DNA of 64,000 nt from Candidatus Micrarchaeum sp. GTDB taxonomy: Archaea > SpSt-1190 > DYHY01. Shown in pieces: positions 28,923-53,910 of the stretch (positions are counted from its first letter, which is position 1; each line of letters begins with the position of its first letter). The translations under genes and the position numbers were made by a program. Where the stretch lies: the NCBI GenBank assembly GCA_020723935.1, contig DYHY01000004.1, forward strand, positions 7,634-71,633, read 5' to 3'. The notes beneath the pieces are model-generated. The model saw only the letters and a list, made by a program, of their open reading frames with translations, was not told the DNA's origin and ran no database searches.

Positions 28923-29061
28923 TATTGTCGGGAAGGACCCGCAAATCGGCGTTAATAATGGTTTGTTTTGTGGGGAACGGCCGGTGGGCCGACCGGAAGC
29001 GGCCCTCGGACCGCAGAGAAGTCCGCCGATTTCCGGCCAGACCTGTCACTAGTTGAGAAAT

Positions 29062-29274
29062 TGGTGGGGTCGTAGGGATTTGAACCCTAATAAGCAGGTT
29101 TCTCCGAAACCAGCCGGAATCTCAAACCCGCTGTCCTGGCCTCCCGCTTCGAGGCGGGATTGTGCCATTCCTTCCTTTCTTTTCAGTCATCGTCTCGTGG
29201 TCCGCTGACCACTCGACTCTTAGCTCCAAGATTTCCCTGGAGCCTGCCGTAATGCCTAGTTATACGACGACCCC
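29062..29274 (-). tRNA. tRNA-Trp (anticodon CCA) interrupted by a 137-nt intron at position 37/38; CCA encoded
   Basis: Canonical 3' half GGGUUCAAAUCCCUACGACCCCACCA ends at 29062. The matching 5' acceptor GGGGUCG lies 200 nt away. Anticodon stem GCAGG/CCUGC and loop CUCCAG|A are reconstituted across the intron. Confidence 0.55.
29100..29236 (-). ncRNA. tRNA-Trp intron; possible box C/D-like element (CGAUGA-CUGA)
   Basis: ACGAUGACUGA inside the intron. Archaeal tRNA-Trp introns often carry a C/D guide. Motif complement incomplete. Confidence 0.25.
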
Positions 29275-29297
29275 TTGCTTTGGGTGAGAACCGGGGA

Positions 29298-29310
29298 GAC
29301 TTTATATAAA
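29298..29310. promoter_or_regulatory. palindromic TATA-like box TTTATATAAAA shared by divergent tRNA-Trp and the ACD gene
   Basis: About 26 nt upstream of the tRNA 5' end and 30 nt upstream of the ATG at 29340. Confidence 0.35.
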
Positions 29311-29339
29311 ACTTGGTGCCGGGGGGAGATGAGGGCAAA

Positions 29340-30725
29340 ATGGCAGAGGCACGGGGAGCGATCAACACCTTCTTTGACCCCAAGACAATAGCGGTCGTCG
29401 GGGTCTCCTCCACTGAGGAGGAAGGGCCGGGCCGGATAATATTCAAGAACCTCTCCTCGGGCTTTCCTGGGAAGGTCTATGCTGTCAACCCCCGGGCCGC
29501 GCAGATAGAGGGGGCGCGCTGCTACCCGTCCGTCGGGGAGATACCCGGGCCCGTCGACCTGTGCGTGATAGCGACGCCCGCCGCGGTCGTCCCGCAGATA
29601 CTCGAGGACTGCGGCCGCAAGGGGACGCGCAACGCGATAATAGTGTCCGGCGGCTTCGGCGAGGTCGGGAACACGGACCTGGAGGCGCGCCTCGAGGAGG
29701 CCTCAGTCAAGCACGGGATCAGGATAATAGGCCCAAACTGCCTGGGGATCTACGACTCGCATTCCAAGATAAACGCGTTCTTCCTCCCCAGCTACAGGAT
29801 ACGCGTGCCGAAGCCTGGGAACGTCGCGTTCATCAGCCAGAGCGGCGCGGTCGCCGGCGGGGGCCTGGACTGGGCGGCCGCCGAGAACATCGGGATCTCC
29901 AAGATCGTCTCCTACGGCAACAAGCTGGACGTAGGGGAGTGCGAGATGCTCGAATACCTGGAGCGCGACGACCGCACGAAGGTCATAATGGTGTACCTGG
30001 AGGGCCTCAAGGACGGGAGGCGGTTCGTGAGGATAGCCCGCAGGGTCTCCAGGAAGAAGCCTATAATAGTCCTCAAGGTCGGGAACACCTCCAGGGGCGC
30101 GGCCGCGGTCAAGAGCCACACCGGGTCCCTCGCGGGCGACTCCAAGGTCTACGCCGGCGCCTTCGCCCAGGCGGGCATCGTCCAGGCGAGGACCCTGGAG
30201 GAGCTCTTCGACTTCGCGAAGGCGTTCTCCCTCCAGCAGCCGGGCGCGGGCCCGCGCGTCCAGGTGATAACTAGCGGCGGGGGCTTCGGCGTCATGGGGA
30301 CGGACGCGATAGAGGAGAACGCTCTCGTCATGGCCGAGATGGGGGAGGAGAGGCGGGCTGCCCTGCGCGCCCAGCTCCCGGCGCATTGCGTGATCGTAAA
30401 CCCGCTGGACGTCACGGGGGACTCGGACGCCGAAAGGTACAAGCTCGCGACGGACGCGGCGATAGATGACCCTGCGGTCGACGCGATCCTCCTGATCTTC
30501 CTCTTCCAGCTCCCGAAGCTCTCGACGGAGGTCGTGAAGATAATGGCCCTCGCCGACAGGCGCACCGACAAGCCGATAGTCGCCGTCGCGATAGGGTCGG
30601 AATTCACGCACCTGCACCGGGTCACGATGGAAGCCGAGGGGATCCCGGTCTACGACACGCCCGAGCGGGCGGTGCGCGCGATGAAGGCGCTCGTCGACGC
30701 GGGACGCCTCCGCGCCGCGCCATGA
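29340..30725 (+). CDS. acetyl-CoA synthetase (ADP-forming) / NDP-forming acyl-CoA synthetase alpha subunit
   Basis: CoA-binding N-terminus TIAVVGVS, succinyl-CoA-synthetase-like core, GPNCLG. Start at MAEARG within track ORF 29313..30725. Confidence 0.8.
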   Translation: MAEARGAINTFFDPKTIAVVGVSSTEEEGPGRIIFKNLSSGFPGKVYAVNPRAAQIEGARCYPSVGEIPGPVDLCVIATPAAVVPQILEDCGRKGTRNAIIVSGGFGEVGNTDLEARLEEASVKHGIRIIGPNCLGIYDSHSKINAFFLPSYRIRVPKPGNVAFISQSGAVAGGGLDWAAAENIGISKIVSYGNKLDVGECEMLEYLERDDRTKVIMVYLEGLKDGRRFVRIARRVSRKKPIIVLKVGNTSRGAAAVKSHTGSLAGDSKVYAGAFAQAGIVQARTLEELFDFAKAFSLQQPGAGPRVQVITSGGGFGVMGTDAIEENALVMAEMGEERRAALRAQLPAHCVIVNPLDVTGDSDAERYKLATDAAIDDPAVDAILLIFLFQLPKLSTEVVKIMALADRRTDKPIVAVAIGSEFTHLHRVTMEAEGIPVYDTPERAVRAMKALVDAGRLRAAP

Positions 30726-33553: not shown

Positions 33554-34543
33554 TCAAGCCCCCTTCTTCGGCTCGTCCTTCTTCTTCCACATGCGCGGAT
33601 AGGTGCCGCCGGGCATGACGACCCTCACGGGGCTCGCCGCCCAGCCCCTGCTTGCGGACGCCATCTGCCGGGCGTCGCACATCGACGTCGCGAGGGAGAC
33701 TAACTCCTCCTTGCCGCTTATGACCGCGATGAGCTCGCCCGGGACGATTCCTGCATCGATCTTCGTCAGCCCCACGCTCGCTAGGTTTGCCCCACAGCAG
33801 ACGGCCTCGATCGCGCCGTCCTTCACCCAGACCTTCGGGAGGTGGGAGACTGCGGATTCCACCGGGAGCACGGCCTTCCTGATCCTCGCCTCCTCGCCGG
33901 ACTCCATCGCGTCGGCAAGGTCCTGGAGCGTCACGCTGTCCGCCTCCATGAACGGCCCGGCGCGCGTGCGCCGCAGCTCCGTCATGTTGGCGCCCCCCAG
34001 CTTCCTCCCGAGGTCGTGGCACAGCTTCCTGATGTAGGTTCCGGCCTCCACGCTCGTCCTGAACAGGGCGTCCTGGCCCTCGATCTCCGTTATCTCCAGG
34101 GAATACACGCGCCTGGGCCTGATCTCGCGCTTCACCGCCGAGCGCACAGGGGGCTTCTGCATTATCGTCCCGACGAACCCCGCGGCCGCGGAGCGCAGGG
34201 CGGCCTCGTCGACCGGATGGTGCAGGTGCATAACCCCGACGTACTCCTTCCCCGCCGGAAGGAGGGCGTAGAGGACCTTCGTCGCGTCGTTTATCGCGGT
34301 CGGGAGGACGCCCGTGACGTTAGGGTCCAGGGTCCCTGAATGGCCCGCGCGCGCGGCCGAGAGCATGTCCCTCACCCAGGAGGCAACCTCGTGGCTCGTC
34401 GGGCCCGCGGGCTTGTTCAGGTTTATCACGCCGAAGCGCATGAGCTCCTTCATCGGCCGCGCGTCGGGGAAAATGCCGAACTTCTGGTCGGACTCCTCGG
34501 AAGATGCGCCTTCGCGGGAAAGGAACTCGCCGGTCTTGGGCAT
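33554..34543 (-). CDS. cbf5: H/ACA RNP pseudouridine synthase Cbf5 (TruB family with PUA domain)
   Basis: GHSGTLDPNVTG catalytic motif. C-terminal PUA-like region. Confidence 0.9.
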   Translation of the reverse strand: MPKTGEFLSREGASSEESDQKFGIFPDARPMKELMRFGVINLNKPAGPTSHEVASWVRDMLSAARAGHSGTLDPNVTGVLPTAINDATKVLYALLPAGKEYVGVMHLHHPVDEAALRSAAAGFVGTIMQKPPVRSAVKREIRPRRVYSLEITEIEGQDALFRTSVEAGTYIRKLCHDLGRKLGGANMTELRRTRAGPFMEADSVTLQDLADAMESGEEARIRKAVLPVESAVSHLPKVWVKDGAIEAVCCGANLASVGLTKIDAGIVPGELIAVISGKEELVSLATSMCDARQMASASRGWAASPVRVVMPGGTYPRMWKKKDEPKKGA

Positions 34544-38499: not shown

Positions 38500-39294
38500 T
38501 CACTTGAGGCCCCATTTCTCCGCGAATTCCTTGGGGACCGAGAGCGTGCTCGTCTGCTTGAGCGCCTCGAATGTGGCGTAGCCAAGGTTTATCCTGTTCC
38601 TCGTCTCTCCATCTATCCTTGACCAGGCATCCGTTATCCCGGCGAGCGCGAGGATCCTCTTCGCCTCCGGGTGCACGACCAAGCCCGTTCCCCGCGGGGC
38701 GGGGATGAGCTCGACCATGACGCTCGAGGACTTGCCGCGTATCTTGAAGGGGACGCTGTGGGGCTTTCCGCACCCGCATTCCCACGATCCGCACGCGCGA
38801 AGGACCCTCACCATATTGAGCTTGGCCGCCTTCGTCGAGGACTCCTTTGCAGGGAGGGATTCCCTCGACGAGCCCTTGCCCATGCCGATGTACCCGTCGT
38901 TGTTCCCGACGATCGCAAGGTACGAGAACTTGGTCCTCGCGCCCTCGCGCACCTTCTTCTGGGTGTTCTTGTACACCCTGCGCGCGCCGCCGCCGAACTT
39001 GCCCTTGGACTGGCCGATCATGACGAAGTCCACGGCGAGCTGCGGGAAGAAATAGTCGACGATCTCAGGCTCCATGACCTTGATGCCCTTGGAGAGTATC
39101 TCGTCGAAGCTCTTCACCTTGCCCGCAAGGACGTCTCGCCCGAGAGCCGTCTTGGGGATCCAGATCTTGGGCGCCGCGTCCTCGTCGCGCCTGTATCCTC
39201 CGGCCGCGCCCTTGCGCCTTCCCCGGCCCCTGCCTCCGCCGAAACCTCCGCGTCCGCCGGGCCTTCCGCCCGCTGATGGTCCTGCCATTTTCAA
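38500..39294 (-). CDS. rps5: 30S ribosomal protein S5 (uS5)
   Basis: Gly/Arg-rich N-terminus; S5 dsRBD and C-terminal domain. Confidence 0.9.
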   Translation of the reverse strand: MKMAGPSAGGRPGGRGGFGGGRGRGRRKGAAGGYRRDEDAAPKIWIPKTALGRDVLAGKVKSFDEILSKGIKVMEPEIVDYFFPQLAVDFVMIGQSKGKFGGGARRVYKNTQKKVREGARTKFSYLAIVGNNDGYIGMGKGSSRESLPAKESSTKAAKLNMVRVLRACGSWECGCGKPHSVPFKIRGKSSSVMVELIPAPRGTGLVVHPEAKRILALAGITDAWSRIDGETRNRINLGYATFEALKQTSTLSVPKEFAEKWGLK

Positions 39295-39860
39295 TCGCTA
39301 CCTCCGTCGTCGTTCCTGCTCTTCTCTATCCTGCCCTTCACTTCCGCGAAGTTGGCCGGTATCTGCGACGGCTCCAGGCCGTGCTTCTTGTAGTCGGAGA
39401 ACGTCGACGGCGCGCCCTTGATGTGCGCGCCCTCTAGGCGCTCCTTGGACGGGAAGACCCCTTCGTCGCATTCGACAAGGAGGCCTGCGTCTATCGCGCC
39501 CTTGAGCGCCGCGAAGATCCTGCCGCCCTTGGCCGGGCGCTGCAGGCCCACGTCCAGGATCGCCTTCTGCGCCTTGCCGGCGGAGCGCTTCCCGACGAGG
39601 TAGCCCACGAGGTACGCCGTGGGGATGTTCCCGAGGTTCCCCTTCCATCCCAGCTTCCTGATGTCCGCCCCGGACGCCGCCGCGACCGTCGTGTCGCCTT
39701 CCGGCCTGAACTCGACGAGCTGCGCGTAGACGTTGGAGAGGCTCTTCCTCACGACGAGCCGTGTCATCCCCGACCTCACTGCCGCAAGCCTGCGGCGGTA
39801 GTCGGTCTTCCCTTCCCGCCTCCTCCTGAAGCGGACCCGGTATATCGGTGAATCTGCCAT
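39291..39860 (-). CDS. rpl18: 50S ribosomal protein L18 (uL18)
   Basis: RRRREGKTDYRRRL...RLVVRKSLSNVYAQL. Confidence 0.9.
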   Translation of the reverse strand: MADSPIYRVRFRRRREGKTDYRRRLAAVRSGMTRLVVRKSLSNVYAQLVEFRPEGDTTVAAASGADIRKLGWKGNLGNIPTAYLVGYLVGKRSAGKAQKAILDVGLQRPAKGGRIFAALKGAIDAGLLVECDEGVFPSKERLEGAHIKGAPSTFSDYKKHGLEPSQIPANFAEVKGRIEKSRNDDGGSD

Positions 39861-39861
39861 C

Positions 39862-40326
39862 TTACTGCTTCGCGCTCCCTTCCTTGTTCCTCGCTTCCGC
39901 GCCCTTGCCCAGGTGCAGCTTCAAGTGCGTCTTACTCCTGAAGTACCCCCCGCGCGCCTTGGCATAGAGGTCGGTGTACTCCTTCTTGGAGACCTCGCCC
40001 TTGGAAAGCATCGCCTTGAGCAGGCGCCTTATCGGGCGGATCGTGTTTATCCAATCGCGCTTGTCGGACACTGAGGAGCCCCTCCTCGTCGCCGCGCCGC
40101 GGGGGCGGCCCTTGCGCCGCTTCTCGCCGCGCGCCCGGGCCCTCGCCCTAGAGGTCCCCAGCTCGTCGCGCTTCCCTATGATCCCTTTCTCTATCAGGCG
40201 CCTCACGTCGTCGCGGGTTATCGCCGCGGAGACCTTCTTCCCCGCATCCGGGTCTATCCAGACGCGGTTGATCCCTACCTTGAGTATCTCCGACGCCATC
40301 CTTCTCTGAGAGTATACGTCCGTCAT
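39862..40326 (-). CDS. rpl19e: 50S ribosomal protein L19e (eL19)
   Basis: QRRMASEILKVGINRVWIDPD. Confidence 0.9.
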   Translation of the reverse strand: MTDVYSQRRMASEILKVGINRVWIDPDAGKKVSAAITRDDVRRLIEKGIIGKRDELGTSRARARARGEKRRKGRPRGAATRRGSSVSDKRDWINTIRPIRRLLKAMLSKGEVSKKEYTDLYAKARGGYFRSKTHLKLHLGKGAEARNKEGSAKQ

Positions 40327-40754
40327 TGCTGCTTCTTCTCCTCCTCCGCCTTGCCCCCGGCGGGCGCGGCCTCGGCCTTCTGCGCCGTCTTGGCCTGCGC
40401 CTTCTTCCTCGCCTTCGCCGGGTTGAAGACCTTTATCCCTGCCTTCTTCGCAGCCTCGGTGATCGCCACCTTGTTCCTCCGGGAGAGGTTCCCCGAGATT
40501 CTCGCGCCCTCGCCCTTCTTGTCAAGGAGCGACAGGTCCGCTATCCTGAAGACCATGATTTCCGCAAGGCCCGTAGGATGCAGCCCGCGCAGGGCCGCGG
40601 CCTTCCCGAACCCCGCGTCCACGACGCGCGGGTTGCCCTTCCTGTGCTCGCGCATCTTGCTGTGGTGGCCGCGCGGCTTCCTCCAGGAGGGATCGTGCGC
40701 GACCCTCTTGTACCTGTGGTGCTCCTGCTTGAGAAACTTTACTCTTCCTGCCAT
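40323..40754 (-). CDS. rpl32e: 50S ribosomal protein L32e (eL32)
   Basis: KFLKQEHHRYKRV...WRKPRGHHSKMR. Confidence 0.85.
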   Translation of the reverse strand: MAGRVKFLKQEHHRYKRVAHDPSWRKPRGHHSKMREHRKGNPRVVDAGFGKAAALRGLHPTGLAEIMVFRIADLSLLDKKGEGARISGNLSRRNKVAITEAAKKAGIKVFNPAKARKKAQAKTAQKAEAAPAGGKAEEEKKQQ

Positions 40755-40761
40755 TTCCTTT

Positions 40762-41340
40762 TCAGGCTCCTTCCACCCCTTTCGGGCGGACCTTCTTGTC
40801 GATTATGTAGACCCCGTCCTGGAACGTGCGGTGGTCCTTCCTCTTTATCTTCGTGGCGTCCTCTATCTTCTGGGCGCTCTTCCCCAGGGCCTCAACGTCG
40901 GATCCGGAGAGCGTCAGGGACTTGCCGCCGACCTTGGCCTTCACCCCGGGCTCGATTTTGACGACCCGCGGGGATTTCTCCCCGATGAAGTTCTCGATCC
41001 TGACCTCCGAGCCCGCCGCCGTGACCTTTATCGGGAAGTGGCTCTGGACTACCTCCAGCCTGTACTCGAAGCCGTTCAGGACGCCCTCGGCCATGTTGGC
41101 TATGTGCGCCTGGATCGTCTCCAGGGTGGCCTTGGCCTTCCTGTTCTGGGACCTTGCGACGAGGATTATCTTCCCTCTGTCCACCGACACGGCGACGAAC
41201 GGGCTCACCATCGCGCGGGAGACGGATCCCTTGGGCCCCCTCATCGTGAGGCGCCCCTCCTTCATTTCCGCGGACAGACCGCTTCCGAGGGACTCGATCC
41301 CTATTTCCCTCGTGACCTTGTGCGTAGCTTCTGTTGCCAT
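40762..41340 (-). CDS. rpl6: 50S ribosomal protein L6 (uL6)
   Basis: Two L6 repeats. Start at the internal Met (MATEATHKV) of track ORF 40762..41493. Confidence 0.9.
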   Translation of the reverse strand: MATEATHKVTREIGIESLGSGLSAEMKEGRLTMRGPKGSVSRAMVSPFVAVSVDRGKIILVARSQNRKAKATLETIQAHIANMAEGVLNGFEYRLEVVQSHFPIKVTAAGSEVRIENFIGEKSPRVVKIEPGVKAKVGGKSLTLSGSDVEALGKSAQKIEDATKIKRKDHRTFQDGVYIIDKKVRPKGVEGA

Positions 41341-41363
41341 GTTGTTCTCTTTCCTGCGTCCGT

Positions 41364-41747
41364 CTAGTAGACGAACGCTATGAGCTTCCCTCCCACCTTC
41401 TTCTTCTTGGCTTCCTCGTGGGTTATGACGCCCGCCGAGGTTGTCAGGATGAGTATGCCGAAGCCCTGGGCCGGGAGGTAGCGCTTCTCCCATTTCTCTA
41501 TCTCAAAGACTCTCACCGGGGTCCTCGGGCTTATCGCCCCGCAGTTGTTCACGGTGTGTGGGAGCTTCAGGCGGTAGACCTTGCCCCTGCCGTCGTCTAT
41601 CGTCTCGAACTCCCCGACGTAGCCGTTCTTCTGCATGAGCTGCAGCACCGCGGTACAGACCGCCGACGTGGGCCGGACGAGCGCCTCGCTCTTCCCGCTA
41701 TTTGCGGCGTTCTTCACCGTCGCCATCATGTTCGAAAGCGTTGTCAT
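41364..41747 (-). CDS. rps8: 30S ribosomal protein S8 (uS8)
   Basis: 127 aa, conserved S8 C-terminus ...GGKLIAFVY. Confidence 0.9.
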   Translation of the reverse strand: MTTLSNMMATVKNAANSGKSEALVRPTSAVCTAVLQLMQKNGYVGEFETIDDGRGKVYRLKLPHTVNNCGAISPRTPVRVFEIEKWEKRYLPAQGFGILILTTSAGVITHEEAKKKKVGGKLIAFVY

Positions 41748-41775
41748 TTTCTCTTCGTTCTCCTTCCTTGGTTCG

Positions 41776-41935
41776 TCATTCGTACTGCTTGAAGCCGAGG
41801 TCCTTGGAGACCTCCCTGAAGCACTGCCTGCAGACGTTGAGGCCGTACTTGCGTATGAGGGCGTTGTGGTTCCCGCATATCCTGCACTGCCTCGACCCCT
41901 TGCCGAAAGCGCGCTGCACCTTCTGGTTCTTGACC
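41776..41935 (-). CDS. rps14: 30S ribosomal protein S14 type Z (zinc-binding uS14)
   Basis: Below the track size cutoff. [53 protein letters not shown]. Confidence 0.8.
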
Positions 41936-41946
41936 ATGTCGGACTA

Positions 41947-42486
41947 CTATTCCTCCTCCTTGCCCTCTTCGCGGCTCGATATCTTGGCCCCGAAGCGCTT
42001 CGCGAACTCCATCGCGTCCTCCCTGGACACCCTGTGATGTAGCCCCACCTTCGCCGGCCTCATCCGCCTCCACTTGACGCGGTAGCCCGGACGCTTGAGC
42101 GTGACGCACACGTCCATCCCTATTATCCCGAGGCTCGGGTCGTACTTGACGTCGGGGAGGTCGATGTACTCCTTTATCCCGAACGCGAAGTTCCCCTCGT
42201 TGTCGAAGCTCGTCTCGCGGACGGTGTTCTCGGCCGCCGCAAGCGCCCGCTTGAGGAACTTCTCCGCGGCCTCGCCGCGCAGCGTCAGCTTGCAGCCTAT
42301 GACGGTGTTGGGGCGCACGCCGAAGTCCGGGATCCTCTTCGTCGTCATGGTCTTGACGGGGGTCCTGCCCACGACCTTCTTGAGGACGTTTATCGCGTTC
42401 TCCAGCTTCGCGCCGCCTTCGCCGACGCCGACGTTTATCGTCACCTTCTCTATCGCGACCTGCTGCATCGGGTTGGTCTTGGCCAT
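41947..42486 (-). CDS. rpl5: 50S ribosomal protein L5 (uL5)
   Basis: 179 aa, canonical L5. Confidence 0.9.
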   Translation of the reverse strand: MAKTNPMQQVAIEKVTINVGVGEGGAKLENAINVLKKVVGRTPVKTMTTKRIPDFGVRPNTVIGCKLTLRGEAAEKFLKRALAAAENTVRETSFDNEGNFAFGIKEYIDLPDVKYDPSLGIIGMDVCVTLKRPGYRVKWRRMRPAKVGLHHRVSREDAMEFAKRFGAKISSREEGKEEE

Positions 42487-42488
42487 CT

Positions 42489-43217
42489 CTAGGCTGCCTC
42501 CTTCTTGCCCTCGGAAACCGTGAGCTCGGGCTTGCCCACGCCGACAGCTATCACATACTCCTTGAGCGTCTCGAGGGACTTCCTGCCGGCTTCGAGGAGC
42601 ACCGTCGGGGGGGAGTTCGCCGTCCCGCTCCTGAACTCCGATATCTCGAAGACCTTGCCCGTGTGCGCGCCGTCGTAGACGACGACGATGGTCCTCTTGT
42701 CGAGGGGTATGTACTTGGCGACCTTGCCGCTCTTCAGGTCGAAGAGCACCGAGAAGCCGGTCTTGACGGACCCGGCCGCCGCGGCGTCAAGGAGGAGGGT
42801 CCTCCCGTCGTGGAAGGCGACCTGCGTCTTCCCGCCGCCGATCGTGCGCTTCCCCGTGACCTTGAGGATCTTGAGGAGCGCCTCCTTCTCCGGTATTTCG
42901 ACCAGGCCCAGGCCCTTCCCCAAGGGGACCACCCGGTAGTGCTTGCCGACGGTCTTGAATGTGATCGTGTCCATGAGCCCCACCGCGAGCGAGCCCTTCA
43001 TGCACGCCTTGCCGTCGACGAGGACCTCCTTGGCCCCCAGGATCGCGTTGACCTCCCTTGCGGTCCGTCCCAGCTTCAGGACGTCGCGCATCACGACGAG
43101 GAGCGGCAGCGACCTGTCCTTCGGGTGCCTGCCCGGCTTGGGCGTGACGACCCAGTACGCGGTCTTCTTGCCCGTCTTCCAGTAGGACGGGGATATTATG
43201 CGTTTCAGATGCGCCAT
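42489..43217 (-). CDS. rps4e: 30S ribosomal protein S4e (eS4)
   Basis: MAHLKRIISPSYWKTGKK... with S4 and KOW domains. Confidence 0.9.
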   Translation of the reverse strand: MAHLKRIISPSYWKTGKKTAYWVVTPKPGRHPKDRSLPLLVVMRDVLKLGRTAREVNAILGAKEVLVDGKACMKGSLAVGLMDTITFKTVGKHYRVVPLGKGLGLVEIPEKEALLKILKVTGKRTIGGGKTQVAFHDGRTLLLDAAAAGSVKTGFSVLFDLKSGKVAKYIPLDKRTIVVVYDGAHTGKVFEISEFRSGTANSPPTVLLEAGRKSLETLKEYVIAVGVGKPELTVSEGKKEAA

Positions 43218-43219
43218 GA

Positions 43220-43603
43220 CTATTTCTTCCTCCCTGCTGCCGTCGCCCTTTCGAGTGCCTTCTTCCTCATCTTGTCGTCCCCGGATATCTCCAGGATGAT
43301 GAGGTTGGACGGGTGGAGCGGGACGCGGACCTTGGACCCGTTGACCTTCTGCACCGTGACGCCCTCCAAGTAGGCCCTGGACCTGACGAGGTCCACTTCC
43401 TCAACCTTGGCGACGGTCCCGTTGAACTCGCCGCGCACGACCTTGACCTTGTCGCCCTTCCTCAGCTGGATCGCGCGCTTCCCTATCTTCGCCTTCAGGT
43501 CCTTGGAGACGTGCGCGTGCACGAGCGACTGCCGCTTGTGCATCGGCGCGTTGTAGAGGGCTTTGTGCTGGTTTCGCCTAAGGGCGGATCTCGTGAGCAC
43601 CAT
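43220..43603 (-). CDS. rpl24: 50S ribosomal protein L24 (uL24)
   Basis: KOW motif KGDKVKVVRGEFNGTVAKV. Confidence 0.9.
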   Translation of the reverse strand: MVLTRSALRRNQHKALYNAPMHKRQSLVHAHVSKDLKAKIGKRAIQLRKGDKVKVVRGEFNGTVAKVEEVDLVRSRAYLEGVTVQKVNGSKVRVPLHPSNLIILEISGDDKMRKKALERATAAGRKK

Positions 43604-44032
43604 CTAGACAACAATCCTCGCGACCTTGCCTATCTTGTTCCAGCGCTCGATCGCCTCCTTGGCAATCGCCGCCTTGACCTCGGAGCCCTTGGGGCCCCCC
43701 TCGTCGTCGACGATGACGCAGGTGTTCTCCTCGAATTTGATCCTCGTCCCGTCGGCGCGCCTGAACTCCTTCCTCATGGAAGTGATGACCGCCTTGGCCA
43801 GCTTCTTCCTGTATTCAGGCGTGCCGCTCTTGACCGCGACGAAGACCATGTCCCCGATCGTCGCGCGCGGAGCGCGGCCCCTGACCCCGTGGTAGCCCTT
43901 GATCGCGGCTATCTCGCAGATCTTGGCTCCGGAGTTGTCTATGCACTTGATCCTGCTCCCCGTGTTGAGGCCCCGCGTCGTCTTGATCGTCAGGGGCCTC
44001 TTGCCCGAAACCTTTACACGTCGTTGTCCCAT
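43604..44032 (-). CDS. rpl14: 50S ribosomal protein L14 (uL14)
   Basis: CIDNSGAKICEIAAIKG. Confidence 0.9.
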   Translation of the reverse strand: MGQRRVKVSGKRPLTIKTTRGLNTGSRIKCIDNSGAKICEIAAIKGYHGVRGRAPRATIGDMVFVAVKSGTPEYRKKLAKAVITSMRKEFRRADGTRIKFEENTCVIVDDEGGPKGSEVKAAIAKEAIERWNKIGKVARIVV

Positions 44033-44040
44033 CTAGAAAA

Positions 44041-44430
44041 TCATGCCCCTTCCTTCTTCTTCGCTGCCGCCGGTGTCGCCGCGGCGGCGGCTCGGACGTG
44101 CTCCGCCCGCTTGATCACCGCTGTGACTATGAAGTTCATCGTCTTGGAGAGCTTCCTCGTCTCCTCGATCCTGACCGTGTCGCCGGACCGCGCGCCGAGG
44201 CCCTCGGGGTTCCTCGCCTTAACCCTGCTGGAGAGCCTCTTGAACCTGTTGTACTTGGGGACCCAGACGACGCGCGGCCACTCCACAATGACCGAGCCGT
44301 GCATCTTGTCGGACACGACCGTCCCCTCGAAAAACTTGCCCCTGGTCCTTACTGCCAGGGCTCCCGCCACGCCGAAAGCACCCTTTGGAGCCGCTTTGTG
44401 CGCTCCTCCGGTCTTGCCATGATCGCCCAT
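44041..44430 (-). CDS. rps17: 30S ribosomal protein S17 (uS17)
   Basis: GKFFEGTVVSDKMHGSVIVEWPRVVWVPKYNRFKR. 5' end overlaps the rnp1 3' end; start may be further downstream. Confidence 0.85.
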   Translation of the reverse strand: MGDHGKTGGAHKAAPKGAFGVAGALAVRTRGKFFEGTVVSDKMHGSVIVEWPRVVWVPKYNRFKRLSSRVKARNPEGLGARSGDTVRIEETRKLSKTMNFIVTAVIKRAEHVRAAAAATPAAAKKKEGA

Positions 44431-44699
44431 CCTTCGATATCCACCTTCGTTGTTCTTTTGCTGCTTCCCTTCTTTCCCTCGCCGGCGGGAATCGAGAAGC
44501 GGAACACGGCCCCTTTCTTCGGGACCTTCGTCTCCCGCTGCTTCCTCTTCCCGCTAGCGCTCTCAATCACCAAAAGGCGCTCCGTTTCCCACGCGACCGT
44601 CCCCGACAGGCCGACGAGGCCAGGGTCCGTCGCGCGCACGACTTTTACAGGAATCCCTGCGAACTCGTGACCCGCAAGGTTCCGAGGTGTGACAGGCAT
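44349..44699 (-). CDS. rnp1: RNase P protein component 1 (Rpp29/Pop4)
   Basis: GLVGLSGTVAWETERLLVI core. Conserved position between L29 and S17. Confidence 0.7.
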   Translation of the reverse strand: MPVTPRNLAGHEFAGIPVKVVRATDPGLVGLSGTVAWETERLLVIESASGKRKQRETKVPKKGAVFRFSIPAGEGKKGSSKRTTKVDIEGWAIMARPEERTKRLQRVLSAWREPWQ

Positions 44700-44738
44700 A
44701 ACGTCTGCTGGAAGTAGGGGGCCAGGTTCCCCGGCCGT

Positions 44739-44993
44739 TTATAAGAGTTCCGGATGACCCTTCCTGAGGGAAAAGGGCCCCCTGTGGGAGCAAATCAGAA
44801 ATAGGGGTATTGCGGCCCGCCCGAGGTAGAGGGCGGTGAGGACGAGGACTGCGCACGTGAGCAGGCCCATCTTCCACCTGCGCGGGACGTCCTCGAGGGC
44901 CGTGTCCAGGAAGTCTAGGAACAGGAGGAGGGCGAGGGCGCAGCCCACGAGGAGGATGAGGAAGTTCGCCCCTTGAGAAAAGTCCGCGCGCAT
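44739..44993 (-). CDS. small two-TM membrane protein
   Basis: 84 aa hydrophobic ORF. An in-frame TAG 12 codons upstream of its Met separates a further 24-aa hydrophobic segment. Confidence 0.3.
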   Translation of the reverse strand: MRADFSQGANFLILLVGCALALLLFLDFLDTALEDVPRRWKMGLLTCAVLVLTALYLGRAAIPLFLICSHRGPFSLRKGHPELL

Positions 44994-45151
44994 CTTGAAG
45001 GAGAAGGCGTTGTAGCCGGAGTCCCCCTAGTTGGCGACCGCGTAGGAGAGGAGCACGAGGGCTAGGAGGAGGCTGGCAAAATAGAGCTTTATGTCTGCCA
45101 CGGTATTCCTACTAGGCGGGCAAAATAAAGCTTTCCCTGCGCGGGCTGCCC

Positions 45152-45466
45152 TCAGTCGTTGTCCTTGACCTCGACCGATTCGGGGGGGAACCCGGCCGCG
45201 GCCAGGGCGGGGAGTATCCTCTTCCTGTGGTCGCCCTGCAGCTCTATTATCGCGTCCTTCCCGGTGCCGCCGCAGGCGAGGCGCTCCTTGAGTTTCTTTG
45301 TCACGTCCTCAATGTTGACGTCCTTGGGGTTTATCCCCTCGACGAGCGTCACCATCTTCTTGAACCTGCGCTTCTCGACCCGCACGACGATCTTCTGGAC
45401 CTCGCGGGAAATGCTCTCGCAGACGCAGAAATCCTTAGGTAGTCCGCACTTCTTGCATACTTCCAT
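45152..45466 (-). CDS. translation initiation factor SUI1 (aSUI1/eIF1)
   Basis: VVRVEKRRFKKMVTLVEG...LKERLACGGTGKD. Confidence 0.85.
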   Translation of the reverse strand: MEVCKKCGLPKDFCVCESISREVQKIVVRVEKRRFKKMVTLVEGINPKDVNIEDVTKKLKERLACGGTGKDAIIELQGDHRKRILPALAAAGFPPESVEVKDND

Positions 45467-45472
45467 TTGCGA

Positions 45473-45682
45473 CTATTTGCCCATGACCTTCTTGGATGAG
45501 GAGACGGTGAGAAGCTTGGCGATGGCGCGGCGGATGTTCTTGATGCTCGACGGCTTCGTCGGCGCTCTCCCGGTCGCCCTCTTGGACATCTCCTTCACTA
45601 GTTCCGCCCTGAGCTCTTTTAACCTTTTGCCGGCTTCCGCCGCTCCGAGGCCCGCGAGCTCCTTCTTCTTGATGATCGCCAT
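45473..45682 (-). CDS. rpl29: 50S ribosomal protein L29 (uL29)
   Basis: 69 aa, KELRAELVKEMSKRATG. Confidence 0.85.
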   Translation of the reverse strand: MAIIKKKELAGLGAAEAGKRLKELRAELVKEMSKRATGRAPTKPSSIKNIRRAIAKLLTVSSSKKVMGK

Positions 45683-45684
45683 CC

Positions 45685-46386
45685 CTACTGTACCTCCCCG
45701 GCCGATGCCGCCGCCGGCGCGGCCTGCGGCTGCTGCGGCTGCTGCGGCTGCTGCGGCTGAGCCGGTTTCTGGGCCGCCGCGCTCGCCGCGATGTTCTCGG
45801 CGATCAGGACCTCGTCCGGGAAGCCGACGTTCTGGGGCATTATCCTCACGCGCACGCCGACGACTCCCGGCTTGAGCTGGGCGTCGTAGTATCCGACGAG
45901 GACGCTGTCCTTGACCACCTGCCCGCAGTGCCTGATGTAGCCCTTCTTGAATATCCAGTCCTTGGCCCTGGCGCTAGGGACCTTGCCCGAGATTCGGATC
46001 TCGGCGCCCCTCGCCCCGGCGAGCATTATGCTGTCAAGGACCCTGTGGGCGACCTTCTTGAAATAGTAGCCGCGCTCCAGGAACCCGCCGACCTTCGCCG
46101 CCTGAAGCTGCGCGTCAACGTCGGGGTTGTCTATCGTCTTCACCTCAACCTGCGGGTTGTCTATCTTGAAGTCGGTCTTGAGCTTCTCCGTGAGCTCCTT
46201 GATGCTCTCGCCGCTCCTGCCGATGACGAGGCCCGGGCGCATCGCGTAGATTATGACGCGCGTGCCCATGGGCGTGCGCTTTATCTCGGTGTGCGAGTAG
46301 CCGGCGCGCCTAAGGTTGCGCGCTAGCATCCTCATCACTTCCAGCTCCTTCATCTTCTCCGACACGAAGAACTTTTCGACTGTCAT
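45685..46386 (-). CDS. rps3: 30S ribosomal protein S3 (uS3) with Gln/Pro-rich C-terminal tail
   Basis: KH and S3-C domains. PQQPQQPQQPQ tail from a (CTGCGG)n repeat. Confidence 0.9.
   Translation of the reverse strand: MTVEKFFVSEKMKELEVMRMLARNLRRAGYSHTEIKRTPMGTRVIIYAMRPGLVIGRSGESIKELTEKLKTDFKIDNPQVEVKTIDNPDVDAQLQAAKVGGFLERGYYFKKVAHRVLDSIMLAGARGAEIRISGKVPSARAKDWIFKKGYIRHCGQVVKDSVLVGYYDAQLKPGVVGVRVRIMPQNVGFPDEVLIAENIAASAAAQKPAQPQQPQQPQQPQAAPAAASAGEVQ
45724..45759. repeat. (CTGCGG)n hexanucleotide repeat in the rps3 3' end
   Basis: ctgcggctgctgcggctgctgcggctgctgcggctg. Confidence 0.8.
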
Positions 46387-46387
46387 C

Positions 46388-46843
46388 TTAGCGCACCCTC
46401 TCCTCCAGAACTATCTCCACGCTCGCCCTTCTGCTTCTGTTGGACGGGCCCTTGGCGAAGGCGCGGGCGGTGCCGGGCCTCTTGTGGACCGACCTGTTTG
46501 CGACCGCGCTCACGACGTAGAGCCTCTTCTCGTCCAGGCCCTTGGCCTTGGCGTTGCCCTTGGCGTTGAGGAGGATCGTGAGGACTTCCTGCGCGGCGTT
46601 CACCGGGAAGCGCGCGGGCCCGATGCCCGGCTTGTGCCCGACCTCGGTGTTGTACCTGCGGAACCTTATCGGGGTCTTCACGTAGATCACCTTGCTGAGG
46701 ACGTCCTCTGCCTGGGCGACCGGGAGGCCCCGGATGTTCCAGACAACCTCGACTGCGTCCTTTGCGGATATGTGCAGCGCCATCGCGTGGGCCTTGGCAA
46801 CCTTCGCCCCGTTGGGCGCTTCGTAGGAATATTTCCTTGGCAC
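46388..46843 (-). CDS. rpl22: 50S ribosomal protein L22 (uL22)
   Basis: 151 aa, canonical. Confidence 0.9.
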   Translation of the reverse strand: MPRKYSYEAPNGAKVAKAHAMALHISAKDAVEVVWNIRGLPVAQAEDVLSKVIYVKTPIRFRRYNTEVGHKPGIGPARFPVNAAQEVLTILLNAKGNAKAKGLDEKRLYVVSAVANRSVHKRPGTARAFAKGPSNRSRRASVEIVLEERVR

Positions 46844-46864
46844 GTGTGTTGTCCTTCCTCCTTC

Positions 46865-47260
46865 TTACTTGAGCGGGATGAACATGCTGCTCTTCGTCGC
46901 GCCGATTCCCGGAGCCCCGTGCTGGACGCGGTGCCTCGTGAGCGCGAACTCACCCATCCTGTGGCCCACCTGCTCGGCGGTTATCTCGAACGTCACGAAC
47001 TCCTTGCCCGCGTGGACGGCGACCAGGGCGCCCACCATCTGCGGGGTGATTATCACATCTCTGTAGTGCGTGCGCACCGGGTTTTTGTCCTTGTTCTTGG
47101 CCGCGTTCAGGACGTCGAAGACGAACTTCTTCTCCGCGGGCGAAAATCCGCGAAGAAGGCGCCTCCGGGCCCTGGCCGGGACCAGCTTCGAGAACTCCTG
47201 CAGCGTCAGCTTCTGGAGCTCCTCTATCGTCTTTCCTCGGTATTTGAAGATCCTTGCCAT
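46865..47260 (-). CDS. rps19: 30S ribosomal protein S19 (uS19)
   Basis: 131 aa, canonical. Confidence 0.9.
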   Translation of the reverse strand: MARIFKYRGKTIEELQKLTLQEFSKLVPARARRRLLRGFSPAEKKFVFDVLNAAKNKDKNPVRTHYRDVIITPQMVGALVAVHAGKEFVTFEITAEQVGHRMGEFALTRHRVQHGAPGIGATKSSMFIPLK

Positions 47261-47284
47261 CTGGTGAGCGTGTTCCTCCTGTGC

Positions 47285-48088
47285 CTATTCCTTCTTCTTC
47301 TTCTCCTGCTGCTGCCCGGAGTCCTGCTGGCCTCCGGAGCCTCCGCTTACTATCTGGGACTCCTTCTTCTTGGAGGAGCCGCGGCCCATCGAGCGCGCGG
47401 CGATGCTCCCGACCTTCCTTCCGGGCGGCGCGTTGTGGCTCACCGTCTGGGACTTACCCAGGTGCTGGTGGCCTCCGCCCCCGAACGGGTGGTCGACGGG
47501 GTTCCTCGCGGACGCCGAGCTCCTCGGCCAGCGCAGGTTCCTCGCGTGCTTCTTGTGATGCATCTTCCCAGCCTTTGCGAACGGCTTGAGTATGCGCCCG
47601 GATCCGGCGGCGATCCCTATTGTCGCGCGGCACTGGGGAAGGAGCGTCCTCATCTCCCCGGACGCGAGGCGGATGTTTATGATCCCCCTGTCCTTGGCGA
47701 CGATGAACGCGTAGCTTCCGGAGGAGCGGCCGATCTTGCCGCCGTCGCCGGGCCTAAACTCGATGTTGAAGACGGGGATCGTCTCGGGGATCATCCCGAG
47801 CGGGAGGACGTTGCCCTCCTTCGCCTCGGCCTGCGAGCCTATGAAGACCTTCTGCCCGACGAGCAGGCCTTCCTTGGCCGGCACGAGGGCTTCGGCCGGG
47901 CCCCGCCTGATCACCGCGACCGGGACGTTGTGCCCGACGGAGTGGATGATGTCTGAGACCGTCCATTCCTCGGCCGCGCCGTCGGCGGAGGGCTCCGGAT
48001 AGGCGAGCGTCCCCGCGTACCTGTGCGAGGGCGCCCTGAAAGTCGGCAGGTTCTTACCGCGTCTCTGTTGGATGAGTCGTTTTCCCAT
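47285..48088 (-). CDS. rpl2: 50S ribosomal protein L2 (uL2)
   Basis: 267 aa, canonical L2 with Gly/Gln-rich C-terminal extension. Confidence 0.9.
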   Translation of the reverse strand: MGKRLIQQRRGKNLPTFRAPSHRYAGTLAYPEPSADGAAEEWTVSDIIHSVGHNVPVAVIRRGPAEALVPAKEGLLVGQKVFIGSQAEAKEGNVLPLGMIPETIPVFNIEFRPGDGGKIGRSSGSYAFIVAKDRGIINIRLASGEMRTLLPQCRATIGIAAGSGRILKPFAKAGKMHHKKHARNLRWPRSSASARNPVDHPFGGGGHQHLGKSQTVSHNAPPGRKVGSIAARSMGRGSSKKKESQIVSGGSGGQQDSGQQQEKKKKE

Positions 48089-48095
48089 TTTTCCT

Positions 48096-48479
48096 TCACA
48101 GCATCCCGAGTTTCGATGCGAGGTCGGAGGCGGAGGATTCGGGCGACAGGTCTATGTACGCCTTCTTCTTGCCGTTCGCGGCGTTCTGCGTCCTCACGGC
48201 CGCCACCTTCACGCCGTAGAGCGATTCCATCGCCATGCGCACCGTCCCCTTCGTGGCCGTGCGGGCCACAATGAAAGTTATCGTGTTGAGCGCAGTCATC
48301 CTGACCGCCTTTTCGGTCGTGTAGGGATAAAGGAGGACCTCCTCGGGCCTGAAGGTTCCCGGGAATGCCTTCGCCTTCCCCTTGCCTTTCCCCTCGGCGC
48401 CCGCCGGCGACGCGCCGGGCTTCTTCCTGGGGGATTTCATGGGTTTCTTGACCTGCTGGGGTTCAGCCGTTTCAGCCAT
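48096..48479 (-). CDS. rpl23: 50S ribosomal protein L23 (uL23) with Lys-rich N-terminal extension
   Basis: Start at MAETAEPQQVKKP within track ORF 48096..48605. Core LLYPYTTEKAVRM. Confidence 0.85.
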   Translation of the reverse strand: MAETAEPQQVKKPMKSPRKKPGASPAGAEGKGKGKAKAFPGTFRPEEVLLYPYTTEKAVRMTALNTITFIVARTATKGTVRMAMESLYGVKVAAVRTQNAANGKKKAYIDLSPESSASDLASKLGML

Positions 48480-49296
48480 GGTAGTAGAGTTTCTCCTCCT
48501 TGAGTTTCGCGATCGCGCCCTCGCTCCAGACTGTGAGCCTTCCCGGCACCGTCCCGGGCGCGAGAAGCTCGGCGTTGAGCTGGTTGACCGTGACTGCGTC
48601 AACACCGGGGATGTTCCTCGCGGCCCTGAGCGCGGCCGCGCCGGGCTTGGATAGGATGAGGAGGACCGACTTCTTGGCCTTGTAGGGCCGCCCCCTCATC
48701 TTCCCGACGCCCGCACGGGTCTTCCTCTTGGAAACGCGCTCTAGGTCCGAGCCCAGGCCCAGCTTCTGGAGAAGCGTCTCCATCTCCTTTGCCTTGGAGA
48801 TCTCCTCCGCGCCGTCCTCGACGATTATCGGGAGCTCCAGCTCCTTCGCTATCCTGTGGCCGCGCGCCTGGACGAGCATTATCTGCGCCGTCGCGGCGAT
48901 CGCGCTCCTGATCGCAAGGAGCCTCTCCTTGCGGTTGATCCGCTCCGTGAAGTTCTTCTCGGGGGTGGGGGCGTGCACCGACCTTCCGCCCACCGCCTGC
49001 GGGACGATCTTGGCCTGGCCGACGCGCCTTCCGCCCTTCTTTATCAGGAGGCGTGGGATCCTGGCCTGCCCGTATCCGTAGGAATGGCCCCAGCCCTTCC
49101 TCGTGCCCTTGTAGCGGGCGGACGAGCGCTTGCCGCTCTTGGGGTCCGGGCCGTAGGGCTGCCGCCTCGCGTTCTGCGAGGAGATGACGGCGCGCGCTAT
49201 GACGTCGGGCCTCACGCTTTCGGAGAACTGCGACGGGAGATCGGACCTTGCGGAGGTCTTCTCGCCCGACTTCGAATATACTGGAACCTTGCTCAT
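48472..49296 (-). CDS. rpl4: 50S ribosomal protein L4 (uL4)
   Basis: 274 aa, canonical. Confidence 0.9.
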   Translation of the reverse strand: MSKVPVYSKSGEKTSARSDLPSQFSESVRPDVIARAVISSQNARRQPYGPDPKSGKRSSARYKGTRKGWGHSYGYGQARIPRLLIKKGGRRVGQAKIVPQAVGGRSVHAPTPEKNFTERINRKERLLAIRSAIAATAQIMLVQARGHRIAKELELPIIVEDGAEEISKAKEMETLLQKLGLGSDLERVSKRKTRAGVGKMRGRPYKAKKSVLLILSKPGAAALRAARNIPGVDAVTVNQLNAELLAPGTVPGRLTVWSEGAIAKLKEEKLYYHG

Positions 49297-50255
49297 TGCC
49301 TGATCACTCCTTCCATCGCGACATTGTCTACCTTCCTCGCGGGGTAGACCTTTTCAGGTATGCGCATGGCGAACCTCAGGCGCACGAGCCTCTTGGATGG
49401 CCCGGGGACCGAGCCCGCGATGAGGAGATAGTCGCCCTCGACCTTGCCTCCGTAGCCCGTGATTCCGCCGGGGACGTCCAGGCCCTTGTCGGACATGAAG
49501 ACGACCTGCTTGTTGAACTCGCAGCGCTGGTTGTATCCGGCCTTGCCGGGCATCGGCGTCTGCCAGAGGACCCTCTTGGGGCGCCAGCTGCCGATGTTGC
49601 CCGGCCGCCTCCTTGAGCGCTTGGTCTTAGGGGGCTGGAGCGGGACGTTGTGCCTAGCGACGGGGCCCAGGAACCCGTGGCCCTTGGTGACCGCGAAGAC
49701 GTCGATGTAATCGCCGACAGTGAGGACGTCGGATGCCCTGATGTCCTTCCCCAGGAGCTCTTCGGCCTTCTTCTTCTGCTCCTCAGGGGTGCCGGCGACC
49801 GCCACTTCCATCACTTCCGGCTTCTTCTTCCCGAAGCCTGCGATGCGTGGCTGCGTCGCGACGAGGATCACCACCTTGTCGAACTTCTCCGGGGCCTTGC
49901 CCTCGGCGGCCTTCTTGGGAAGGGGCCTCATCGTCCTCGCGAGGTCCTTGGGGAGGCTTGATGCCATCACCTGGCCCGTCTTCTTCTTCCCCTTGTAGAA
50001 CACGGCGCCTATCGCCTTCAGGGGCGGCGTGTGGAGGACGGTGAGTGCCTCCTGGCGCGGCTGGTTCACGAGGATGCTCTTGGGATTGTTCTCTATGAGC
50101 TGGCCGTGGGTTATCGCAACCTTGTATCCCGAAAAGCCGAGGATCGACTTGCCCTCGGGAGCGACCCATGTCCGGATGCGAGGTATCTCGCTGTCCGCGC
50201 GTGCACGGGGATTGAACTGCCTGCTTCCCCTTCTAGGATGGCTGAATTTGCCCAT
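49293..50255 (-). CDS. rpl3: 50S ribosomal protein L3 (uL3)
   Basis: 320 aa, canonical. First gene of the cluster. Confidence 0.9.
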   Translation of the reverse strand: MGKFSHPRRGSRQFNPRARADSEIPRIRTWVAPEGKSILGFSGYKVAITHGQLIENNPKSILVNQPRQEALTVLHTPPLKAIGAVFYKGKKKTGQVMASSLPKDLARTMRPLPKKAAEGKAPEKFDKVVILVATQPRIAGFGKKKPEVMEVAVAGTPEEQKKKAEELLGKDIRASDVLTVGDYIDVFAVTKGHGFLGPVARHNVPLQPPKTKRSRRRPGNIGSWRPKRVLWQTPMPGKAGYNQRCEFNKQVVFMSDKGLDVPGGITGYGGKVEGDYLLIAGSVPGPSKRLVRLRFAMRIPEKVYPARKVDNVAMEGVIRQ

Positions 50256-53404: not shown

Positions 53405-53827
53405 TTAGACGTCCAGGACGACCCGGCAGACGAACCGGCCGGCGCGCTTCGTTATCGCCATCTCGTGATAGGTGACCGACTTCACCAGGGAGAACGTCGG
53501 GTGTTTCCGGGATATGGGCTCGCCCCGCGCGACGGCGGAAAGGCCCGCCTTGGTGATCCTCACCGAGAACGAGGAGAAGAACATCCCCTTCGCGTCGTAG
53601 AGGTAGACGAGCCTGTCGAGGAAATCGTAGAGGAGGGCGACATCGTCGGAGCGGCGGGGGACGGAAACCCGGACCGCCTTCTTCCTGGCGACCTCGGACA
53701 GATCGGTCATCGAGGCGAAGGTGGCTTTCCCGGCGTTCGCGAAAGCCCGGGAAAGCGTGCGTCCGTAGGATTCGAACTCGACGTCCGTCGTGTGGGGGAG
53801 GAATCTGAAGCCGGAATCCTCAGTCAT
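53405..53827 (-). CDS. archease (RtcB activator)
   Basis: FRFLPHTTDVEFESYG. Adjacent to rtcB. Start at the internal Met of track ORF 53405..53884. Confidence 0.75.
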   Translation of the reverse strand: MTEDSGFRFLPHTTDVEFESYGRTLSRAFANAGKATFASMTDLSEVARKKAVRVSVPRRSDDVALLYDFLDRLVYLYDAKGMFFSSFSVRITKAGLSAVARGEPISRKHPTFSLVKSVTYHEMAITKRAGRFVCRVVLDV

Positions 53828-53910
53828 ATGGCTGGGTGGAAAAAGACGGAAAATAAAAGAAGATTGGTGGCCCGCCGGGGCCACCGTTCTTGCCTGCTTG
53901 CTCCGCTTGC

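Follow-up and report, generated by a model that had tools for sequence, protein, structure and literature searches.

The question raised by this locus is what kind of RNA is carried by the 137-nt intron of its tRNA-Trp gene. Box C/D guides encoded in tRNA-Trp introns have been a model since 2001 for cis versus trans action and for the coupling of modification to splicing, and all those described share, to our knowledge, one architecture. Here, we analyzed such a gene from Candidatus Micrarchaeum sp. in a 64,000-nt stretch of DNA (contig DYHY01000004.1), the whole of which is called the window. The results indicate that the locus is probably a functional tRNA-Trp(CCA) gene, whose intron would be both a BHB intron and a circularly permuted relative of the C/D guides with a single K-turn.

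ARAGORN with intron search called the tRNA-Trp(CCA) gene, intron included, at 29062-29274 on the minus strand, on which all features of the gene and its intron described below are located. Removal of the 137-nt intron left a mature tRNA-Trp of 76 nt with encoded CCA. From ARAGORN and an enforced fold, the 5′ exon (tRNA positions 1-37) was placed at 29237-29274, with the anticodon CCA at 29240-29238 and C34 at 29240, and the 3′ exon (positions 38-76) at 29062-29099. The intron (29100-29236) occupies the canonical 37/38 site; the ARAGORN call sits 2 nt more 5′ owing to sequence ambiguity, and we placed the intron at 37/38 because the BHB geometry fixes the site despite this ambiguity. As called, splicing restored a cloverleaf with a 7-bp acceptor stem (GGGGUCG/CGACCCC), 5-bp anticodon (GCAGG/CCUGC) and T stems, the T-loop UUCAAAU, and the anticodon loop CUCCAGA joined at 37/38. 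ARAGORN and the sequence thus bore out the first-pass annotation, which had been made from the letters alone, as to the gene, its coordinates, the 137-nt intron at 37/38, the anticodon stem and the loop. The same annotation called the intron unusually long, which holds against older surveys, where archaeal tRNA introns range from 11 to 129 nt overall with a Trp median of 65 nt (PMC4090602); yet 137 nt, while above that range, is a mid-range length among the 41 related Trp introns described below (39-294 nt). Because of the intron, default ARAGORN and Rfam at the gathering threshold missed the tRNA-Trp and returned only tRNA-His and tRNA-Leu in the window, and a permissive Rfam scan of 28950-29400 gave a weak tRNA match to the 3′ half only (29065-29129, 18 bits). 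Since such genes escape default tRNA and Rfam scans, tRNA-Trp may be wrongly called missing in DPANN MAGs. A TATA-like sequence, TTTATATA, at 29303-29310, which is 29-36 nt upstream of tRNA position 1, is the putative promoter.

Relatives of the locus were then collected. In the window, the flanking genes encode a P-type ATPase, an ADP-forming acetyl-CoA synthetase and CysRS. Synthetase homologues with 67-72% identity were found in unclassified archaeal MAGs, and the farther named ones were mostly DPANN. Four relatives were located through this synthetase neighbor, with tRNA-Trp in the matching intergenic gap and introns of 128-148 nt. In all, five relatives keep tRNA-Trp at the syntenic position, with introns within these lengths, and their exons are identical save one D-loop base in L003; a syntenic gene with near-identical exons in five relatives is more than chance. 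A pattern scan of one genome per species (GGAGNN^ACCUGC...GGGUUCRAAUCCC, ^ being the junction) yielded 51 loci with 41 unique tRNA-Trp introns, most of which derive from Altiarchaeota, Iainarchaeia, Micrarchaeota, Aenigmatarchaeota and unclassified archaea; because the pattern fixes GGAGNN^ACCUGC, this sample is biased, and the exon side of the two duplexes described below cannot covary in it. The scan added L016 as the sixth member of the window clade, and a metagenome scan for more clade members returned only an already known contig; exact look-ups of two proteins encoded in the window matched no record.

Next, we analyzed the splice junctions. The strict hBHBh′ motif has a 4-bp central helix, two 3-nt bulges that hold the splice sites, and outer helices, and the first two anticodon bases lie within the central helix (PMC4090602). 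When the pairs of the anticodon stem, the C32-C35/GGAG helix and GAAAUC/GGUUUC were enforced, this motif folded at -74.9 kcal/mol, with both 3-nt bulges unpaired and the rest of the precursor in the cloverleaf. Its parts are the 5-bp anticodon stem, a 3′ bulge of AA and A38 around the cleavage site, the central helix C32-C35/GGAG (CUCC/GGAG), a 5′ bulge of A36 and G37 followed by the first intron G, and the 6-bp helix h′ (GAAAUC/GGUUUC). The 5′ strand of h′ (intron nt 2-7; 29230-29235) pairs with 29111-29106. The 3′ end of the intron (29100-29111) accordingly consists of the 3′ strand GGUUUC (29111-29106), then GGAG (29105-29102), which pairs with C32-C35, and then AA (29101-29100), which forms the 3′ bulge with A38. 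In the six clade members, h′ measures 5-7 bp and shows A-U, C-G and U-G changes. The first-pass annotation had named the lack of a foldable BHB at the exon-intron junctions as grounds for rejecting the intron; in the enforced fold, the motif is foldable, and these grounds fail. Its statement that the ligase system for such introns lies in the same window was likewise confirmed by Pfam, which identified RtcB at 51886-53355 (minus strand, E=2.7e-167) and archease at 53405-53884 (minus strand, E=5.2e-35). EndA, the splicing endonuclease, was looked for in 35 window ORFs together with fibrillarin, Nop5 and L7Ae, and none of the four was found.

We then asked what the remainder of the intron encodes. 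The consensus of box C is RUGAUGA and that of box D is CUGA, and the K-turn is built from tandem sheared G-A pairs, a 3-nt bulge with U at L3, and a canonical stem that brings the boxes side by side. In the window, such a K-turn can be read as AAGA, a 26-nt hairpin, the bulge GAU, and GA followed by CUG. Box D, AAGA (29218-29221), has an invariant GA and is CUGA, CCGA or CAGA in most relatives. The stem I hairpin, GUC-GA-GUGGUC AGCG GACCAC-GA-GAC (29192-29217), folds with covariation in 32 sequences, and abuts both box D and the box C bulge, thereby joining the two. The box C region GAUGACUG (29184-29191) comprises the bulge GAU, the sheared-pair GA, and CUG. In this arrangement, NNGA provides the non-bulged strand and the hairpin the canonical stem; L1-L3 of the bulge correspond to GAU, and the sheared pairs are made by GA. 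The boxes keep their GA cores and are otherwise degenerate, with AAGA in place of CUGA for box D and AUGACUG in place of RUGAUGA for the 7-nt box C, which in relatives has the form AUGACGA. The module antisense-NNGA-hairpin-NNU-GA was present in 39 of the 41 unique related introns, with NNGA exactly at N+5 from C34. As shared, it reads ..UGGAGC, one nt, NNGA (mostly CUGA), a hairpin of 8-67 nt, NNU (mostly GAU), GA and YGA.

A register-anchored pseudo-alignment of 32 distinct modules, in which the variable loop was replaced by a GAAA linker, was used to analyze covariation; the outer (first) two stem I pairs had served as a selection criterion. All 32 sequences share GA in both box D and box C, as well as the U at L3. 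In stem I, 92% of the cells were paired, and each of the four pairs changes on both sides. The covariation score was 0.925, compared to 0.216 for shuffled alignments (0 of 500 reached it) and at most 0.25 with the partner columns slid, and at 4n-4b the window clade has A-U where most sequences have C-G. The covarying K-turn module and its relatives bear out the suggestion of the first-pass annotation that the intron bears a box C/D-type element. The Rfam C/D search that it proposed gave nothing, as no family was matched in the window intron at E≤10; eight relatives, whose introns were scanned at E≤1, likewise gave no match. In archaeal sRNPs, two K-turn or K-loop motifs 12 nt apart are the norm, and no C′/D′ motif was found in the window intron.

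A box C/D guide is recognized by an antisense element of ~10-12 nt directly upstream of box D. In the window, antisense element 1 (the D guide), CUUGGAGCU, occupies intron nt 7-15 (29222-29230) and, in the MFE fold, forms 9 bp with G30-G37 and intron nt 1. By the guide rule, the target pairs with the fifth nt upstream of D (PMC7994747). As shown by the MFE fold, this nucleotide pairs with C34, the wobble base, and the same register was observed in 39 of the 41 related introns and also in canonical Trp-intron guides.

The order of these elements was compared with that of known guides. Approximately 25 aligned Trp-intron guides all read stem-C-g39-D′-loop/hairpin-C′-g34-D-stem, where g39 and g34 are the guides to positions 39 and 34; their units are ..UUGGAGCN with CUGA and ..GCGGGUUUG with CUGA, and that of P. 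abyssi reads UGAGGA CAGGCGGGUUUG CUGA ... UGAUGA ACCUUUGGAGCC CCGA (PMC2584109 Additional file 4). In contrast to the canonical C-g39-D′-C′-g34-D, the window intron reads g34-D-hairpin-C-g39, an order shared by 39 of the 41 related introns, and its guide units, CUUGGAGCU followed by AAGA and ACAGCGGGUUUG followed by AGAU, follow each other the other way round. Read as a cycle, g34-D-C-g39-(D′)-(C′), the arrangement agrees with the canonical one, indicating a circular permutation. Thus, the first-pass annotation was right to suspect an atypical intron, although the permuted order that makes it so was invisible to its reader. The C′/D′ half has apparently been lost from the window intron. Other arrangements were also seen: L042 (Thermoplasmata) has the canonical order, and L033 (Nanoarchaeia) keeps the other K-turn as g39-CUGA-hairpin-GUGAGGA-g34.

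No published report of a permuted Trp-intron guide was found in the literature searched. The base phenomenon is known: methylation of C34 and U39 by Trp-intron guides, and the stable circular form of the intron, are documented (PMC4090602, PMC3326292, PMC12558985), and permuted C/D sRNA genes have been described (PMC3491384, PMC6009581); the permuted single-K-turn architecture across mostly DPANN-type lineages is a new form. Among the closest known systems is the euryarchaeal Trp-intron guide (Pyrococcus sR50; the 105-nt intron of Haloferax volcanii), which agrees with the window in host gene, 37/38 site and BHB. In both, the two duplexes span the exon-intron junctions, and the pre-tRNA has to alternate between guide and BHB folds. 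Compared to P. abyssi, the N+5 register to C34 is the same, with CUUGGAGCU before AAGA in the window and CUUUGGAGCC before CCGA in P. abyssi. The differences concern the frame around these guides. The K-turn of the window is closed by the 26-nt hairpin, whereas that of the euryarchaeal guide is closed by the intron ends (terminal stem); the window lacks C′, its D′ is degenerate (AGAU), D is AAGA and C is AUGACUG; it has a 52-nt insertion between box C and the second antisense element, which the euryarchaeal guide has not; and its intron is 137 nt long compared to 55-105 nt.

Free-standing permuted or circular C/D sRNAs (Nanoarchaeum equitans sRNA24/26, PMC3491384; Pyrobaculum sR56/sR57, PMC6009581), a class to which circular C/D RNAs of Pyrococcus also belong, similarly have D upstream of C and the cyclic element order of their canonical relatives. 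A circular stage is common to both, as excised Trp introns are circularised. However, those sRNAs mostly target rRNA from genes of their own, while the window guide lies within the intron of its own target, and its retained K-turn is intact in the linear precursor, so that its restoration does not require circularisation. The Sulfolobus solfataricus tRNA-Trp intron, a stable 65-nt circle without consensus C/D boxes, has 7-bp complementarities around positions 34 and 39 (PMC3326292). There, as in the second half of the window intron, the complementarities are kept and the boxes have decayed; the window intron differs in keeping one well-formed, covarying K-turn beside the C34 guide. The elongator tRNA-Met intron of N. 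equitans is alike in being a DPANN tRNA intron with a C/D-type RNA and a stable hairpin; its host tRNA is another one, and a permuted order relative to a canonical homologue is not described for it (PMC3491384).

The second complementarity was analyzed in the same way. Antisense element 2, GCGGGUUUG (29123-29131), agrees with the Pyrococcus D′ (position-39) guide ..GCGGGUUUG, to which it is nearly identical. In the MFE fold, GCGGGUUU (29131-29124) pairs with the last two intron nt and A38-C43, and G at 29127 pairs with C39. Among 17 distinct cases, in which element 2 had been chosen only by its match to the invariant exon, its two 3′ nucleotides pair with the last two intron nt in 14 and 12, respectively, compared to 7.1 and 6.2 for shuffled sequences (fractions of shuffles, 2e-4 and 1e-3). 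This covariation with the end of the intron shows that the duplex over the 3′ junction is real. Both duplexes of the window span an exon-intron junction, yet the N+5 rule is obeyed there for position 34 only. Directly after element 2, the D′ register for position 39 (29119-29122) reads AGAU, which is degenerate and without the GA of a box; canonical guides have CUGA at this position and L001 has AAGA. Element 2 lies 52 nt from box C, compared to the canonical spacing of 12 nt. The clade-specific insertion between them (29137-29183) consists of an A/G-rich stretch (29183-29168) and a hairpin (29167-29137), the latter being present with differing sequence in L001 and L003 and absent from L002, L004 and L016.

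These features bear on the best-surviving alternative, in which the intron would be a full dual guide for Cm34 and Cm39, as in Haloferax and Pyrococcus, acting through a cryptic D′/C′ motif; one possibility is that the motif forms only after circularisation, with GGAGAA of the 3′ end as a C′-like box. We regard this alternative as unlikely. Element 2 is conserved and covaries with the junction, L001 retains AAGA in the D′ register, and in 16 of 36 relatives element 2 begins 3 nt past box C, so that the base paired with C39 falls at spacer position 8, as in a canonical D′ guide (12-nt spacer, N+5). However, besides the AGAU register and the 52-nt distance in the window, most of the canonically spaced relatives lack GA at D′ (AGAC, CGCU, AACG and others), and no conserved C′ was found. 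Shifted candidates for the D′ box (UUGA, GAGA) were not conserved either, and neither they nor the N+5 registers were accepted. A C′/D′ K-turn across the circularisation junction, built from GAGA, a UUCCG/CGGAG stem, the bulge AAG and GA at intron nt 2-3, could be drawn for the window and not for L001 or L002.

Further candidates for a second K-turn were rejected. That the 3′-end GGAGNN acts as a C′-like box in the circle is speculation, as GA alone matches and GGAG is already needed by the BHB. For a K-turn of element 2 with the 3′ junction (CAGG-UCA-GA with UG-A), Watson-Crick covariation fitted better. A K-turn with the BHB central helix as canonical stem needs NNGA before GGAG, where UUUC is found. 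Because of the AGAU register and the 52-nt distance from box C, we do not claim Cm39, and methylation at position 39 in the window gene appears doubtful; more likely, element 2 is the remnant of a position-39 guide, which would help to open the anticodon stem rather than direct Cm39.

The thermodynamics of the two conformers were then calculated. The MFE fold of the whole precursor is the guide conformer, at -89.2 kcal/mol (z=-4.8 compared to shuffles), whereas the intron alone folds marginally better than shuffles (z=-1.9). In silico, the two conformers are mutually exclusive, and their folding energies differ by ~14 kcal/mol in favor of the guide form. For the probable functional gene, the predicted sequence of events is as follows. 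The primary transcript would prefer the guide conformer, with intron nt 7-15 on G30-G37 and intron nt 1, and with GCGGGUUU on the last two intron nt and A38-C43, which in silico sequesters the anticodon-stem and BHB strands. Box D (AAGA) and box C (AUGACUG), held by the 26-nt hairpin, would form the K-turn, which, by analogy with the family, would bind L7Ae and recruit Nop5-fibrillarin. Fibrillarin would then methylate the 2′-O of C34; the register is seen in the pairing, and the chemistry is presumed. After refolding to the BHB conformer, the splicing endonuclease would cut between nt 37 and intron nt 1 and between intron nt 137 and nt 38, and RtcB with archease would join the exons and circularise the intron, a circle that could act again in trans, as Haloferax and Sulfolobus data suggest. 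Only a 5-nt loop joins the guide to its C34 target in cis, and accommodation of this loop by the RNP might fail. A bolder reading, which we hold at somewhat less than even probability, is that a broad, mostly DPANN-type set of archaea carries the permuted guide with its C34 half alone still working, as a single-K-turn guide that acts in cis; methylation of C34 would then obligatorily precede splicing, as both BHB strands are hidden in the guide conformer.

It is also conceivable, although improbable, that the K-turn and antisense elements are an L7Ae-assisted folding or timing device, which orders processing and transfers no methyl group. In its favor, a switch away from a conformer that is more stable by 14 kcal/mol must be under the control of some factor, the box D and box C sequences of the window clade are degenerate, C′/D′ is absent, and neither fibrillarin nor Nop5 turned up among the 35 window ORFs scanned. 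A folding role, however, needs no N+5 register to C34, which is kept in 39 of 41 introns from very different lineages, and the guide units match experimentally validated guides. That the intron is a long spacer with a BHB, whose box-like motifs and complementarities are fortuitous, is very unlikely: the missing Rfam match and the intron-alone z of -1.9 are compatible with it, but in the six clade members and the 39 of 41 wider relatives the blocks are conserved amid variable surroundings, and both stem I and the junction show covariation. Finally, the CGAUGA-CUGA pair of the first-pass annotation could be taken for the boxes of a conventional C/D element, CGAUGA lying at 29192-29187 and CUGA next to it at 29186-29183. 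While both motifs are present, this has next to no probability and is already refuted by the comparative data, as a C and a D without spacer can neither flank a guide nor form a K-turn, relatives read GAUGACGAAAA without CUGA, L003 has it broken (CUUGA), and the covarying hairpin joins GAUGA to the upstream NNGA, so that the partner D is AAGA. The rejected CUGA is the 3′ end of box C (AUGACUG), which takes in its 29186-29184, with one extra U in the window clade.

If the bolder reading of obligatory methylation before splicing is correct, the intron would have its own switch that places modification ahead of splicing, and would form a naturally occurring minimal half-mer C/D RNP. Despite the rearrangement of the RNA, the Cm34 guide-target relation has persisted through deep archaeal divergence, and the permuted form is a natural test of whether an archaeal C/D RNP with a single K-turn works in vivo. 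The permuted guide may have arisen through the circular excised intron or a tandem duplication; we infer that re-insertion of the circle, or duplication with trimming, would turn the strands of the terminal stem into the hairpin. The permuted form thereby suggests that sRNAs can evolve by way of circular intron intermediates or tandem duplication. In L028, a 278-nt intron of Micrarchaeia, there are apparently two K-turns, each closed by a hairpin, arranged as g39-GCGA-hairpin-AAUGACUG-g34-AUGA-hairpin-AUUGACUUG; this intron is a possible intermediate between the permuted arrangement and the canonical one.

Several minor observations were made in the related introns. In the window, stem I contains a symmetric tandem GA/GA internal loop (29212-29213 and 29195-29196, minus strand), which is absent in relatives. 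L002, L004 and L016 have an internal copy of the 3′ junction just downstream of element 2 (GCGGGUUU-GAGAG..-AAACCUGC), which could pair with element 2 as an intronic decoy; the bases after this copy resemble the start of the 3′ exon (CUUAUU). An extra insert just past the 5′ splice site, absent from the window, was observed in L013, L014, L021, L022, L027, L030, L035 and L036, and likewise in L037, L050, L057 and L031; it forms a polypyrimidine/polypurine hairpin (CCCUUUUCUU...AAGAAAAGG), often with a second hairpin after it. In four Trp-like loci from Micrarchaeota and an unclassified archaeon (L009, L032, L048 and L053), the 3′ pattern matched and the 5′ anticodon-stem strand was displaced, suggesting a second intron or a different gene structure; ARAGORN miscalled these or gave no gene. 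Eight Bathyarchaeia loci (L023, L026, L034, L039, L044, L045, L047 and L059) carry another tRNA, GGGCCCGUAGCUCAGC..., whose anticodon region includes CAU and whose short intron also ends in GGAGNN^ACCUGC; the ARAGORN identities of these were inconsistent.

Around the gene, the 3′ CCA is encoded in the window (29062-29064, minus strand), while L002, L003, L004 and L016 are without it and read ...ACCCCACU; the L001 tRNA-Trp ends in ACC in the retrieved sequence. A GC-rich hairpin (28976-29007, minus strand) lies between the tRNA 3′ end and the ATPase start, and showed a weak match to Pyrobaculum sRNA 204 (20 bits, E=0.1), which is far below gathering and probably due to chance. The order ATPase, tRNA-Trp, ACD, CysRS, Cbf5 and SecY is kept in relatives. 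Cbf5, a TruB-PUA pseudouridine synthase and the enzyme of the H/ACA RNP, is encoded at 33554-34543 (minus strand), 4 kb from the tRNA, and is followed by a ribosomal-protein cluster (S5, S4e, L4 and L3) at 38500-50255.
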